Shown piece after piece: positions 9,841 through 50,923 of a DNA stretch of 64,000 nt. This DNA is from Escherichia coli (GTDB lineage Bacteria > Pseudomonadota > Gammaproteobacteria > Enterobacterales > Enterobacteriaceae), in assembly GCF_044647545.1 (NCBI RefSeq), contig NZ_CP172818.1. One strand, given 5' to 3'. How positions within the stretch are numbered: position 1 is the first letter of the stretch; each line of letters opens with the position of its first letter. The notes below the pieces were generated by a model. The model was not told the origin of the DNA and did no database searches. It saw nothing but the letters and a program-made list of their open reading frames with translations. Position numbers and translations under genes: made by a program.

Positions 9841-11166
9841 TTAACCTCTCAGAATCCCACGATCGGGACTTACCCAACGAGCGCGTTGTTTTTTAGGCAT
9901 CAACATGACTCGTGTAAATGATACCAATGTCGTTGCCAGGCTTAGCATCCAGAAAATAACCGGGAACCAAATAATCCAGAAAAGCGATGAAGCCAGATTG
10001 TGCTCATAGCGATTCTCAATCACCAGACTGACAATAAATTGCAGTAAACATAACGTACACAATAATATTCCGGCAGTATGTGTCGCTGCGATATGTGTCA
10101 ATTCAATATTTAACGGTACACCTGCAAGTTGGACTGCGTAAATAATGAAACCGACCAGGCAGGTAAAGGCCCATATTGTCGTCAGACAGTATTCAAAAAA
10201 CAGTGGCCACATTCGAAAGTTTTCTTTGCGCCATAGCCTTGTCATATTTTTGAGGAATACTTCTGCACCGCCCTGAGCCCAGCGCAGGCGCTGTTTCCAC
10301 AGCCCTTTTAACGTTTCAGGCATTAATATCCAGCACAGCGCCCGTGGCTCGTAAAAAATCGTCCACTGATTCAACTGCAGCTTCCAGCTAATATCAATAT
10401 CTTCGGTGATCATATCGTCACTCCAGTAACCCACTTCTGCCAGGGCGCTGCGACGAAATGCGGCAATAACACCGGAAACTGTAAATACGTTTCCATAGAT
10501 ACGCTGGGTCCGCTTGATCAAACCAATAATTGAGGAATACTCGCCAACCTGAATTTTACCCACCAGGGTAGAACGTGTGCGAATACGAGGATTACCGGTT
10601 ACGGCACCCACACGCGGGTTGTACAACATCGGTTCCACAATATATGCCGCCGCATCGCGGTCTAATAACGCATCGCCATCAATGCACACCAGATATTCAC
10701 TTTTCGCCGCGGCAGCTCCGGTTTTAAGCGCAATGGCTTTCCCCTGGTTTTGCGCCAGATGAATGACCCGCAGGTGGGGAATTTGTGCAGCCATGCGATC
10801 CAGGATGGCACGGGTTTTGTCTGTTGAACCGTCATTTACGGCAATAACTTCAATGTTCTCATAACGCTGTGCTAAAGCGGCGTGTATGGTTTCCTCAACG
10901 TTTTTCTCCTCATTAAAACAGGGAATGATAATGGAGATAGACGGATTATCTTTCAACTGGGGGGCTGGTGCGTTTTCTCCCCACGGCCAGTGGCGTTCAC
11001 GATAGACCCAGAAATAGACGCCGCCAACAATCCACATAATGGACATAAAAAACGGCCAGAAGAAAACGAACCTCATCATCAGTTCACCAGAGTGAAAGTA
11101 CGCTACGCATAGGGGGATGCATAACACCAGACATAATATAAAAAACGATACGATGCGATTAATCAT
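9841..11166 (-). CDS. pgaC: Poly-beta-1,6-N-acetylglucosamine synthase PgaC (GT2 glycosyltransferase)
   Basis: ORF 441 aa; recognised as E. coli PgaC by sequence and size. Confidence 0.93.
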
Positions 11167-15609: not shown

Positions 15610-15850
15610 CCTGTATTACTCCATGTATTGCCAAAATCTCTCTCTGTATCTAATTACAGGTAACTGAAACGAAAGATATTTTTTTTGCACATCATAATCC
15701 GTTATTAAACGCGGAAGAGAGACGTGAATTGTTGATGATGAGAAGAAGAAATGATGAGTAGAGTATCCATATAAAATCCTTTTCTCGCCCGAAAATCCAT
15801 TCCAATGATGAGGATCTTCAGGAATACGGCATAAATCCCAATGCCTTTTT
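15610..15850 (-). promoter_or_regulatory. pgaABCD long 5' leader with multiple GGA (CsrA-type) motifs
   Basis: The minus-strand transcript sequence contains repeated GGA motifs (AAGGAU, UGGAAUGGAUUUUCG, AUAUGGAUAC), including one over the Shine-Dalgarno next to the start codon. Confidence 0.65.
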
Positions 15851-16198
15851 CAAAATAAATTAGGATTAAAATAATTAAATCAGTAAATTCCGATGCATGA
15901 TATCGGATTTTTCGAAAGTCCTGATGAAATGCAGCGTTACTGTACTCACGGATTCAATTGTTATTCCTAATATATCTATGAATTAATGTTTTATAAGGAT
16001 TTCCTTATAACCATTTATATGTATTTGCAAGCCTGTCTTGTCGCGAAGAATGTATAAAGCACTAAGGTAATAATAATTGCGGTCTGCAACTATCATCATT
16101 GGTATTGTTTGTGGTGGATTTTTATATTGACAACAGTACAGTTCTTATATCTATTAATGACAGAAAGGGATCTACAACCTACAGATTGGTGTAGCTTT

Positions 16199-17617
16199 AT
16201 GGAAAAAGACTATTTGGGAATTAGTAGTACTGTATTAGTGAGTTTATTGTTTGGGCTTGCGTTGGTTTTGGTGAATAGTTGGTTCAATCAGCCAACCGTT
16301 GAGGAAGTTGTTCCACGATCAACCTATCTGATGGTTATGATTGCTTTATTTTTTATCGATACTGTTGCATTTATTTTTATGCAGTTGTATTTCATTTATG
16401 ACCGTAGGCAATTTTCAAACTGTATACTTAGTTTGGCTTTTCTAAGTTGTTTGATTTACTTTATTAAAACCGTCATTATCATTCAGCAAATTATTGAGGG
16501 GCGTTTGACAAGCAGTGTTGTTCAAAATGACATTGCAATTTATTATTTGTTTCGTCAGATGAGTTTGTGCGTATTAATATTTCTGGCATTGGTAAATAAA
16601 GTTAGTGAAAACACAAAACAGCGCAATTTGTTTTCCAAAAAAGTGACTTTGTGCATAACTTTGTTTTTTGTTCTTGGGGGGCCGATAGTTGCTCACATAT
16701 TTTCTAGCCATTATGAGAGCTACGATTTACACATTGCCGAGTTAACCAATGAAAATGGTCAGGTGGTTTGGAAAGCCTCATATGTTACCATAATGATTTT
16801 CATGTGGTTAACCTTGCTTTCGGTTAATCTATACTTTAATGGTTTACGCTGTGATATCTGGAACGGGGTGTCGGTGATTGCTTTTTGTGCCGTGCTGTAC
16901 AATATCTCTCTGTTATTTATGAGCAGGTATAGCGTGTCCATTTGGTATATTAGTCGCACTATTGAAGTAGTCAGTAAGTTAACCGTTTTGGTAATTTTTA
17001 TGTGCCATATATTCAGTGCGCTACGAGTAACAAAGGACATTGCACATCGCGATCCCTTAACCAATATATTTAACAGAAATTATTTTTTTAATGAACTGAC
17101 GGTTCAATCAGCATCGGCCAAAAAAACACCTTATTGCGTCATGATTATGGATATTGACCACTTCAAAAAAGTCAACGACACCTGGGGACATCCGGTTGGC
17201 GATCAAGTGATAAAGACAGTGGTGAATATCATTGGGAAAAGCATACGACCAGATGACCTTTTAGCGCGCGTTGGCGGCGAAGAGTTTGGCGTCTTGCTGA
17301 CGGAGATCGATACTGAATGTGCGAAAGCTTTAGCGGAAAGGATTCGGGAAAATGTTGAACGTTTAACTGGCGATAATCCTGAATACGCCATACCACAAAA
17401 AGTGACGATTAGTATTGGCGCTGTTGTAACGCAGAAAAATGAGTTAAACCCTAAGGAGATCTATCAACTGGCTGATAACGCACTTTACGAGGCGAAAGAG
17501 ACCGGGCGTAATAAGCCGCTGTCGCCAGTTGTCGACCTCCGCTTGGGGCTTCTCATCCCCCCGGTGTGTGCAATATACGAAAAAAAAGCCCGTACTTTCG
17601 TACGAGCTCTTCTTTAA
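16199..17617 (+). CDS. dgcT: Membrane-anchored diguanylate cyclase DgcT/YcdT (GGDEF domain, GGEEF active site); C-terminal tail runs into the serX terminator
   Basis: ORF track 16109..17617; MEKDYL... start at 16199; GGEEF motif in ...LARVGGEEFGVLL...; N-terminal multi-TM region. Confidence 0.85.
   Translation: MEKDYLGISSTVLVSLLFGLALVLVNSWFNQPTVEEVVPRSTYLMVMIALFFIDTVAFIFMQLYFIYDRRQFSNCILSLAFLSCLIYFIKTVIIIQQIIEGRLTSSVVQNDIAIYYLFRQMSLCVLIFLALVNKVSENTKQRNLFSKKVTLCITLFFVLGGPIVAHIFSSHYESYDLHIAELTNENGQVVWKASYVTIMIFMWLTLLSVNLYFNGLRCDIWNGVSVIAFCAVLYNISLLFMSRYSVSIWYISRTIEVVSKLTVLVIFMCHIFSALRVTKDIAHRDPLTNIFNRNYFFNELTVQSASAKKTPYCVMIMDIDHFKKVNDTWGHPVGDQVIKTVVNIIGKSIRPDDLLARVGGEEFGVLLTEIDTECAKALAERIRENVERLTGDNPEYAIPQKVTISIGAVVTQKNELNPKEIYQLADNALYEAKETGRNKPLSPVVDLRLGLLIPPVCAIYEKKARTFVRALL
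17585..17612 (-). terminator. Rho-independent terminator downstream of serX
   Basis: Minus strand reads gagctcgtacgaaagtacgggc followed by TTTTTTTT, immediately 3' of the tRNA; it overlaps the last codons of the ycdT ORF. Confidence 0.7.
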
Positions 17618-27840: not shown

Positions 27841-28998
27841 TTAACGGGCTGGTGCTTTATCGTTCTCACGCTTGACAACCGGTTTACCAGAGAACAAAAA
27901 CTTCAGTAACGGGATGCGTAAATGAATTTCATACAGAATTATCGCAATCCCTACAACGAATATCAGGCCACAGAGAAAACCAAGCCAGTTGGAGGTGATG
28001 TGCGGTGTAATGTATGCGCCGAAAAACAGCGTTAACGGGTGGTGAACCAGATAGATAAACAGCGATGCGTTAACAAAGTAAGTCACCCGCGCTGACTGGA
28101 AGTTAAGCAAACGGTGGCCGAAGGAGAAGACCACATTCACCATCCACAGACCGAGGACCATGGTGATCACCGACTCGGTTTCGTACATCCAGGCATCGCC
28201 ACTGCCATAGCGCTGGTTGAGTAAGTAAGCGACAAATGCCAATGCTGCTGCGAGGGTACAGCCACGAGACGGCGTGGTAAACAAGGCTTTAAGATGAGGG
28301 AAAATGAAAGCCAGTGCGCCGAGGATAAAGAACGGCAAATAAAATAGCGTTTGCATGACAATAAAATTGAACATGCCATTACTCAGAATGGGCGGATACA
28401 CAATAAAAATCGTTCTTCTTATTACCGCATAACCGATGCCGAGGCACAAAAAAATCACCGATAGTTTTACCATCGAGAATTTTTTATTCGTTTTATCAGA
28501 ATTTTCTAAATTATTTCTGATGCGTTTGAATATCCAGACGCACAGCGTCGTCATGACCACTAACACCAATAAAAACCACAGGTGCGATATTAATTCCCAG
28601 GCCAACGTATTATATTTGTCATACATTGACAGCCCAGGCCAACTTTCCGCTTTCCCTTTGACGTATTGCAGCATAATAAATTGCGGTAATGTCAGTAGGG
28701 GGATGGCTGTTAACATCGGGATACCTACACGTTCGACACGTACTTTCCACCATTTTTTCAAGGGATAGCGTAAAAAAAGCATGTAGGAAAAGTAGCCGGA
28801 TATAACGAAAAATACCTGCATGCGGAACGAGTGGATGAAGTCATTAAAAAGGGTCAGCCACAATGACGGTTCGGCGCTATTCACATGCCATGTATGGCTC
28901 GAATAGATTAAAGAAATATGAAAAGGGATCCCTAACAACATCAGCCAGGCGCGGATGGAGTCGAGGAAATATTCACGTTGCGCGGGTACTGGATTCAT
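27841..28998 (-). CDS. opgC: Osmoregulated periplasmic glucan succinyltransferase OpgC (acyltransferase-3 family)
   Basis: ORF 385 aa, polytopic membrane protein; recognised as MdoC/OpgC. Confidence 0.92.
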
Positions 28999-29280
28999 AT
29001 ATGGTTAACTAATCTCGGATTTTTCGTCTTATCCCTGTCGGGTTATGCCTTTAGGCTTGTTGCCATAGCGACACCGACCTGACCGCGCCAGACGCAGGCT
29101 TCAAGGTTTTTATGCATAGCATCATCGCTACCACTAACCAGAATGGAAGCGTCTGTAAGACGGTTGATAAATAAATTTGCTGGCAAACCCTACACGAAGT
29201 CGATGCTTCTGTCTTTAGGAGAAGCACGGAAAGTGAAAACGGTTGCAATCAGGTGCTTAATCCATGAGCCAGCGTGCTGA

Positions 29281-41012: not shown

Positions 41013-41301
41013 CATGGCCCCCTAATTCGTGTTACTAGACAACGTTATTCGAGGTTCAATGCGTTTTTATCTGAAGCAACTTCAGTATACCAATAAGTAA
41101 GGGTATTCACCGAATTTTTAAAGGGGGGAACAGATAAATTTCTGCTTTTAAGATTTATATGAACAATAAAACAGCATGTCATTCATATTTTTTTAGCATA
41201 TTGTGCAATTATTTTGAGGAAGTGTAGAAATTTTGTACTCACAATTCGCAAGTAAAATAAAAAAGCCGGGGCGACCCGGCAAAAACAAAAATCACTGCAT
41301 A

Positions 41302-41547
41302 TTATTCGCTGACAAACCAGTCATCGGCGCTTTCCCACGTTTCCTGGAGAATTTCGCTAATGCGCTGTTTATCTTCTTTTGTCGCGCCAATAACCGATAA
41401 ATTATTTGCTGCGGCATAACGTACCGATACGTGGCCTTCATTATCAGGAAACGCATACTGAATACGGCGGGAAAGTTCGCCAGCCAGGGCGTCAATAGCC
41501 CCAGCTGGCAATGGAGAAGTTTTCGCTATGGTGACTTCAATTCGCAT
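41302..41547 (-). CDS. dinI: DNA damage-inducible protein DinI
   Basis: Internal Met of track ORF 41302..41679 gives MRIEVTIAKTSPLPAGAIDALAGELSRRIQ..., 81 aa. Confidence 0.92.
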   Translation of the reverse strand: MRIEVTIAKTSPLPAGAIDALAGELSRRIQYAFPDNEGHVSVRYAAANNLSVIGATKEDKQRISEILQETWESADDWFVSE

Positions 41548-41568
41548 AATAGCCCCCTGTTGAATATA

Positions 41569-41584
41569 CTGGTTATTTATACAG
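41569..41584 (-). promoter_or_regulatory. LexA (SOS) box of dinI
   Basis: Minus strand reads CTGTATAAATAACCAG (CTGT-N8-ACAG palindrome) 22 bp upstream of the dinI start. Confidence 0.85.
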
Positions 41585-41620
41585 GTAAAATAACCTAATG
41601 ACAACAGGAAGCTACGATTT

Positions 41621-42667
41621 TTATTGTTTAACGGACCAGCGTACCGTTTCCCCAGCGAGGAATGGCACCAGGGTGTCATCAGTCAGTGCGATGCTTTCAG
41701 CAACCTGTTGCTCTTCACGTACCAGTTCGATGAATGTGTCGTTGACCGGCAAGCCATAGAACTGCGGGCCGTTTACAGAACAGAATGCTTCAAAGTGCTG
41801 CAAAGCATTCATCTCTTCAAAGACGGTAGCGTAACTGCCCAGCGCGGTTGGGGCGTTGAAGCAGCCCGCGCAGCCGCAGCTGCTCTCTTTGCGATGACGT
41901 GCATGTGGCGCAGAATCCGTTCCGAGGAATACACGATTAAAACCGCTGGCGACCAGTTCACGCAATGCCTGTTGGTGGATATTGCGTTTGAGGATGGGTA
42001 GACAATACAGGTGCGGACGCACGCCACCAACCAGCATATGGTTGCGGTTAAACATCAGATGCTGCGGAGTGATGGTGGCAGCCAGCCGTTCATTTCCGTC
42101 ACGGACATAGTCGGCAGCATCTTTGGTGGTGATGTGCTCAAAAACGACTTTCAGCGCAGTCAGACGCTGGCGTAGCGGTTCCATCACGCTTTCTATAAAG
42201 CGCGCTTCACGATCAAAAATGTCGATATCTGCATGTGTCACTTCACCATGCACCAGTAGCGGCATACCGATTTTTTCCATGCGCTCTAATACCGGCATGA
42301 TTGCGTCAACTGACGTCACGCCGTGACTGGAGTTAGTGGTTGCGTTTGCCGGGTAAAGTTTTGCAGCGGTGAACACGCCTTCGTTAAATCCGCGCTCCAG
42401 CTCATTCGGATCCAGCGAATCTGTTAAATAACAGGTCATCAATGGGGTGAAATCGTGCCCGGCAGGTACGGCGTCAAGAATACGCTGGCGATACGCCACG
42501 GCAGCCTCAACGGTGGTCACGGGCGGAGCCAGATTGGGCATTACGATAGCCCGTCCATAAATTTCGCTGGTATACGGCACGACAGTTTTTAACATGTCGC
42601 CATCGCGGAGGTGAAGGTGCCAGTCGTCTGGGCGGCGGATCTTTAATACCTGGGATGGTGCAGTCAT
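41621..42667 (-). CDS. pyrC: Dihydroorotase PyrC
   Basis: ORF 348 aa, [27 protein letters not shown]...; recognised as PyrC. Confidence 0.95.
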
Positions 42668-50263: not shown

Positions 50264-50923
50264 TTACAGGTTTATAAGAATATTCCCATCTGCATCAACA
50301 ACGCCGCTGACCACCTGTCCCGATACCATGCGCACCCGCGCATTCTGTGCGACGGCAGCATTGTTCAGCGCCTGACCTTCTGCGTTGGCGCTAAACCCAT
50401 CACCGCTGGCGATCACGTTGACGCGTTGTCCCGCTTTTACCCGCCATGCCTGGCGAAACTGGGTTAACTGGATAGGTTGATCGGGTGATAGATCGCGCAG
50501 GCTAACGGCATCAACAAGTTGATTGATATCCAGTACCGTACGCGGTGGCAAGGTGTCCAGCCGTCCGCGTTTCAGTTTGACATTGCCAGCTTCCAGCTTT
50601 CCTCCCCGCACAATGGGCATTGCGGCAACCACATAATTTCCTGTGGCCTGCACATTAACCTGTAAATATCGTTTGTCGTTACCGCAGCGTGCCAACACAT
50701 TCACATTGCCCCACAGGCGGGAATTATTGCTCATCGAAAGCAATGGCTGCTCGCACGGCGGCAGTAGACTGGGCGCTGTACGAATAGAAACACGAACCTC
50801 ATCACTTACCCCCGCGAGCTGGGCGCTAAAAAAGGTGTGCAATTGCGATGTGAGATTGCTCGCCGTACTTAACGGACTGAACAGTATCGCGATGATCGTC
50901 ACGCTACGTTTTATTGTCAGCAT
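50264..50923 (-). CDS. flgA: Flagellar P-ring assembly chaperone FlgA
   Basis: ORF 219 aa with signal peptide. Confidence 0.93.
   Translation of the reverse strand: MLTIKRSVTIIAILFSPLSTASNLTSQLHTFFSAQLAGVSDEVRVSIRTAPSLLPPCEQPLLSMSNNSRLWGNVNVLARCGNDKRYLQVNVQATGNYVVAAMPIVRGGKLEAGNVKLKRGRLDTLPPRTVLDINQLVDAVSLRDLSPDQPIQLTQFRQAWRVKAGQRVNVIASGDGFSANAEGQALNNAAVAQNARVRMVSGQVVSGVVDADGNILINL

Follow-up and report, generated by a model that had tools for sequence, protein, structure and literature searches.

The dinI locus

The window, that is, the whole stretch of 64,000 nucleotides (64 kb) of Escherichia coli DNA analysed here, encodes dinI on its minus strand, with pyrC as the upstream and bssS as the downstream neighbour on the same strand. 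The stop codon of pyrC occupies positions 41623–41621 and the ATG of dinI positions 41547–41545. In the direction of transcription, the features of the locus are as follows.

41621–42667, minus strand: pyrC (dihydroorotase), the same-strand upstream neighbour (open reading frame list, Pfam Amidohydro_1, annotation)
41548–41620: pyrC–dinI intergenic region, 73 bp, exactly the range given in the earlier note
41599–41604, minus strand: predicted −35 element TTGTCA, 5/6 match to TTGACA (consensus and conservation)
41567–41586, minus strand: LexA operator (SOS box), 20-mer ACCTGTATAAATAACCAGTA (heterology index matrix, K-12 identity, orthologue conservation)
41569–41584, minus strand: 16-mer core of the operator, CTGTATAAATAACCAG, read from the sequence, 13/16 match to CTGTATATATATACAG
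41576–41581, minus strand: predicted −10 element TATAAA (5/6) in the left half of the operator (17-nt spacer to the −35, highly conserved columns)
41570, minus strand: predicted transcriptional start site at the A in the CAG of the operator, 5 nt past the −10, placed by homology and giving a 23-nt 5′UTR
41553–41557, minus strand: Shine-Dalgarno sequence GGGGG, 5 nt before the ATG (conservation peak)
41302–41547, minus strand: dinI coding sequence, 81 amino acids plus stop (open reading frame list, Pfam DinI PF06183)
41255–41280, minus strand: intrinsic terminator of dinI, GCCGGG-TCGC-CCCGGC followed by TTTTTTATTT (T6) (terminator scan, RNA fold)

The identity of the gene is clear. The encoded protein has the length of the DinI family (about 80 amino acids) and scores above the gathering threshold of PF06183 (E = 2.1e-29, 102 bits, cutoff 24.2), and the RefSeq annotation of this open reading frame is dinI, a label shared by the corresponding gene of 5,400+ genomes of E. 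coli. When 501 bp surrounding the site were used as a query, 5,425 of the 5,426 complete genomes of this species matched, with dinI and pyrC annotated. Strains with 100% identity over these 501 bp include ST648 and FDAARGOS_497, and the window strain is not K-12. The window is collinear with ST648: from about 17.9 kb on, the coordinates of the two coincide, and upstream of that point they are shifted by about 53 nt. Because pgaC (9841–11166) and dgcT (16109–17617) are intact open reading frames in the window, whereas the ST648 annotation gives both as frameshifted pseudogenes, the window strain is related to, yet distinct from, ST648.

In K-12 MG1655, dinI (b1061) lies in the same neighbourhood, solA-bssS-dinI-pyrC-yceB. 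MG1655 and the window share an identical 20-mer, an intergenic region without a difference over all 73 bp, and the same DinI protein (NP_415579). The regulatory region is unchanged; outside it, dinI carries two synonymous substitutions, and the T-run of the 3′UTR differs in length by 3 nt. Since intergenic region and protein are identical, published data on the K-12 dinI operator apply to the window. The feature is thus already known: it is the K-12 dinI SOS box itself and nothing new. As a textbook LexA target it carries little weight as a discovery, and its value is that of a positive control, in which a genuine operator was located from sequence alone and passed the test of its heterology index.

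Sequence and heterology index of the operator

On the minus strand the site reads ...TTGTCATTAGGTTATTTTACCTGTATAAATAACCAGTATATTCAACAGGGGGCTATTATG..., and 19 bp separate the end of the 20-mer from the dinI ATG (41547). The earlier note had placed CTGTATAAATAACCAG at 41,584–41,569 on the minus strand, directly upstream of dinI, and both sequence and coordinates were confirmed exactly. The same 20-mer forms the dinI entry of a published MEME table of LexA motifs (PMC3009722 Table 4). Compared with the idealised palindrome TACTG(TA)5CAGTA, 15 of the 20 positions match and five do not. The CTG...CAG palindrome of gammaproteobacterial LexA operators is present with its 10-bp spacing, the CTGT and the CAG triplet being intact, and the right half is CCAG instead of ACAG, a form common to recN, ruvA, uvrD, cho, uvrB and dinB. 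At its outer positions the dinI box has AC in place of the TA of the palindrome, which costs the operator 3.3 units of heterology index (HI).

The HI was calculated with a matrix of the Berg–von Hippel type built from 17 other K-12 LexA sites (PMC3009722 Table 4), from which dinI was omitted to avoid circularity. As this matrix is a reconstruction from 17 sites and not the original Lewis 1994 matrix, its absolute values differ somewhat from published ones. By this measure, the dinI site has an HI of 4.95, which falls to 3.70 if its own sequence is added to the matrix. Leave-one-out values for the 17 training operators extended from 0.58 (sbmC, umuD) to 12.8 (dinG), a range that encloses the dinI value and places it among the stronger-to-middle operators, close to yebG at 5.17. 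Fernandez de Henestrosa and co-workers reportedly arrived in 2000 at an HI of about 6.2 for dinI, using a different matrix. Functional LexA sites are expected to have an HI below about 15 (PMC11002266). We applied a range of below about 12.6–15, and the leave-one-out and the inclusive value of the dinI site both fall within it. The published HI of dinI is 4.8 (Courcelle 2001, tabulated in PMC11228462). The earlier note had proposed a LexA matrix scan with calculation of the HI, and had named a value well above the functional range as the outcome that would speak against its reading. The value obtained here is instead near the published one, and proven operators cover a range that includes it (4.95 compared with 0.6–12.8).

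Conservation of operator and promoter

Orthologues were collected with one genome per species by a search with the back-translated C-terminal DinI motif WESADDWF, a procedure that is independent of the operator; because the sample was chosen by a conserved C-terminal motif, it is biased to closer relatives. The motif scan gave at least 122 matches. Among the matches listed, 111 were DinI-like open reading frames of 70–90 amino acids, 108 of them with at least 150 nt of upstream sequence, from genera including Yersinia, Serratia, Pantoea, Erwinia, Photorhabdus, Edwardsiella, Hafnia, Budvicia, Dickeya and Pectobacterium. A LexA box with an HI of 7.35 or lower was found within 150 nt upstream of every one of these DinI genes (108/108 among the matches listed), and shuffled upstream regions reached an HI of 8 or lower in 0.05% of cases. 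Motif matches that lacked a recognisable DinI open reading frame, for example in Epulopiscium, had a best HI above 16. The position of the box is conserved together with its sequence, the modal gap to the start codon being 19 nt among the matches listed, as in the window. The median HI was 2.75 for the 87 orthologues linked to pyrC and 2.18 for the 21 other copies (among the matches listed), the latter probably being prophage-borne. Homologues of dinI also occur in 162 phage records; for phage-borne copies the analysis drew on these 21 copies and on published data for the Gifsy prophages.

An alignment of 87 unique upstream sequences (MAFFT; the window and 86 orthologues) showed three peaks of conservation: the TTG of the −35 (41604–41602), the operator and the Shine-Dalgarno sequence GGGGG. 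The CTGT and the CAG of the operator do not vary (2.0 bits, n = 87), and the conservation of the −35 TTG equals that of the operator. About 90% of the orthologous boxes among the matches listed are stronger than the E. coli operator, mainly because of the outer AC of the latter. The designation as a canonical LexA box in the earlier note holds in so far as this is the accepted functional dinI SOS box, but it is slightly generous for a sequence with five departures from the palindrome and a rank below most of its listed orthologues. To the textbook picture, the comparative data add modest detail, namely the spacing of about 19 nt between box and ATG, the conserved −35 TTG, the weaker operator of E. 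coli and its natural alleles.

Published work on Salmonella agrees with this pattern. In Salmonella Typhimurium, the boxes of the chromosomal dinI and of the dinI copies of Gifsy-1/2/3 lie 19 bp from the ATG, have HI values of 3.9–5.3 and are induced by nalidixic acid (PMC8072944); these strong boxes resemble that of the window in both spacing and strength. The Gifsy prophage copies are not linked to pyrC, unlike the dinI of the window. For Salmonella dinI a second, very weak box has been reported (HI 17.6, 42 bp; PMC8072944). The best candidate for a second dinI LexA box in the window, at 41622–41641, has an HI of 15.5 and overlaps the pyrC stop codon; it is not credible and was rejected.

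Within E. coli, allele frequencies were estimated by megablast word-match logic and 15 sampled records and do not amount to a full census. On this basis the exact operator (±1 nt) is kept in 4,749 of 5,425 genomes and about 12% differ. The CAGCA allele was considered as the source of these non-exact operators and rejected, as it covers just 47 genomes and several alleles were found on sampling. All sampled variants keep CTGT...CAG and have HI values of 2.75–6.71. The allele T41568C, present in 47 genomes, has an HI of 5.52. A41586G (HI 5.80) was the one most often seen, in three of six sampled single-mismatch genomes. C41585A (HI 2.75) corresponds to a stronger, Citrobacter-like form, and A41578G (HI 6.71) also turns the −10 TATAAA into TATGAA.

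In one complete E. coli genome, that of ST2747 (NZ_CP007394.1, 2986–3110), dinI has been lost through a deletion of about 515 bp, which extends from about 41583 to 41068 in window terms, with the junction ...GGTTATTTTACC|AAAACGCATTG.... Its left break lies inside the LexA operator (after ACC) and its right break upstream of bssS, which leaves the dinI −35 facing bssS with the operator absent.

The dinI promoter was assigned from spacing and conservation and not from a scan call. A promoter scan of the window called no minus-strand promoter at this place, because the scan requires a T at position 6 of the −10, which TATAAA does not have. For the best −35/−10 pair (TTGTCA, 17 nt, TATAAA), the predicted −10 and the predicted start site fall inside the LexA box. 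In Klebsiella pneumoniae, dinI gives rise to a 348-nt primary transcript and to the 157-nt DinR, which starts at position 169 of the coding sequence (PMC10907235). By arithmetic, these lengths imply a 23-nt 5′UTR, which maps onto A41570 in the window. The exact assignment of the E. coli start site to about 41570, and of the −10 to TATAAA, is a prediction. The K. pneumoniae box overlaps a transcriptional start site mapped by dRNA-seq, and its LexA ChIP signal drops after mitomycin C (PMC10907235). At the dinIR locus of that species, dinI is damage-inducible, and its promoter has the architecture predicted for the window. Other gammaproteobacterial SOS boxes (recN, umuDC, sulA, recA, lexA and others) share the CTGT-N8-ACAG architecture, and in them the operator overlaps the core promoter elements, as predicted for dinI.

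LexA control of dinI and alternative readings

It is close to certain that the site is the LexA operator of the chromosomal E. coli dinI gene, that is, of a classical promoter of the SOS regulon. The presence of the site, its score and significance, its identity to K-12 and its conservation were shown here. That dinI depends on LexA and responds to DNA damage is known from the literature, as are the binding of LexA at the promoter of the Klebsiella orthologue and the action of DinI on RecA. In K-12, dinI is induced 49-fold by AZT and shows a 39-fold dependence on LexA cleavage, as judged with lexA3 (PMC11228462). The gene is induced by UV (PMC3009722), and its mRNA and protein are both raised by ciprofloxacin (PMC11002266). 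It appears in a list of genes whose SOS box is known; its product stabilises RecA filaments in stoichiometric amounts and, when its level is high, inhibits the cleavage of UmuD (PMC6590174).

According to this model, a LexA dimer would bind the 20-bp imperfect palindrome at 41586–41567 and thereby cover the −10 (41581–41576) and the predicted start site (around 41570) of a sigma-70 promoter whose −35, TTGTCA, would be that at 41604–41599. Because the best −10 and the predicted start site lie inside the operator, bound LexA should block RNA polymerase until LexA is cleaved; it would keep the polymerase off the promoter, presumably by steric occlusion. Upon DNA damage, RecA filaments formed on single-stranded DNA would stimulate self-cleavage of LexA, and the operator would be vacated. 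Derepression would then yield a monocistronic message about 314 nt long that stops at the 41280–41255 terminator, and the 81-amino-acid DinI produced from it would modulate RecA filaments.

The close proximity of pyrC raises the question of read-through, as the pyrC stop codon lies 16 nt ahead of the dinI −35. The LexA-bound operator might additionally act as a roadblock or insulator against transcription from pyrC, with basal dinI expression supplied by pyrC transcripts and gated by LexA. In the window, neither a terminator scan nor folding detected an intrinsic terminator separating dinI from pyrC. This junction is conserved and short, at a median of 75 bp over 85 orthologues among the matches listed. 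Its short class is without credible terminators, whereas most junctions of about 105–117 bp (Yersinia L003, Brenneria L028, Dickeya L083, L086 and L095, among others) contain a clear hairpin followed by a T-run. This distribution suggests that loci of the E. coli type either do not need a terminator or have something else in its place. Transcripts of pyrC may run on into dinI, or may be halted by LexA or by Rho or processed at their 3′ end. The argument is, however, a purely structural one, and the strong repression and strong induction of dinI (49-fold, PMC11228462) speak against substantial read-through. We therefore regard an additional roadblock function as unlikely.

A related question concerns the fate of the dinI mRNA itself. 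In Klebsiella, a species-specific stretch of the 3′UTR is part of the message that is processed to the sRNA DinR, a repressor of ftsZ. In the window, the dinI 3′UTR has only 21 nt ahead of the terminator stem and is devoid of this stretch, from which the part of DinR that pairs with ftsZ is formed (PMC10907235). Whether a stable 3′ fragment arises from the E. coli dinI mRNA is a question raised in the same study (PMC10907235). The wider set of possibilities, in which the operator insulates dinI as a roadblock or gates a bicistronic pyrC–dinI RNA through LexA or, separately, the E. coli mRNA yields a processed DinR-like 3′ fragment, though one without the Klebsiella pairing region, appears improbable.

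Returning to the LexA operator itself, an inverted repeat at this place could in principle also work as an RNA or DNA hairpin, for example as a terminator of pyrC, and not as a protein-binding site. In two orthologues (L062 and L098) a simple terminator scan indeed caught the LexA palindrome together with the T-rich sequence after it. In the window, however, the arms are AT-rich, just 10 of 20 positions are self-complementary and no terminator-like structure was called. Moreover, conservation acts on specific bases, the invariant CTGT and CAG, and not on pairing, and the pattern fits the LexA matrix; compensatory changes that keep the pairing but not CTG/CAG were not seen in the orthologues listed. 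A hairpin function in place of LexA binding is therefore extremely improbable.

The remaining alternative is an AT-rich near-palindrome that arose by chance and has no regulatory role. The core motif by itself would not argue against it: CTGT-N8-ACAG with up to one mismatch was found 18 times in the 64-kb window compared with 17.3 expected and is not enriched. Because the core occurs at chance rate, the full HI matrix was preferred as the test of significance. A search of the window for the perfect 20-bp palindrome with up to three mismatches gave zero matches; the dinI site escapes it because of its five mismatches, which says nothing on its function. Chance levels for the matrix were taken from 1000 dinucleotide-preserving shuffles of the 64-kb window. 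Of these shuffles, 1 of 1000 reached HI 4.95, with an expectation of 0.001 such sites per 64 kb, so that the dinI operator stands beyond chance. No site elsewhere in the window is better, and the next independent one has an HI of 10.87. At an HI of 15 or lower, 15 sites were observed compared with 11.1 expected, and sites with HI values of 11–15 thus occur at roughly chance frequency. Hence it is the full matrix alone, and not the core motif, that separates the dinI site from the background. The shuffle statistics, together with the conservation of position and sequence at 108/108 DinI genes among the matches listed, exclude a chance match, and the identical K-12 site has a published 39-fold LexA dependence (PMC11228462); the probability left to chance is negligible.

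The runner-up sites at 28987–29006, 50516–50535 and 15642–15661 (HI 10.9–12.2) were considered as LexA targets and rejected on account of their chance-level frequency and poor placement. The first, on the minus strand with an HI of 10.87, lies over the start codon of mdoC/opgC and is without the left CTG, and the second, also on the minus strand (HI 11.28), lies within flgA; both are consistent with chance. The site at 15642–15661 on the plus strand has a perfect CTGT-N8-ACAG core, CTCTGTATCTAATTACAGGT, with an HI of 12.2, and is located in the pgaA leader, 33–52 nt before the start codon. It is probably not a LexA target, because such scores occur at chance rate (1.9 expected at an HI of 12.6 or lower).
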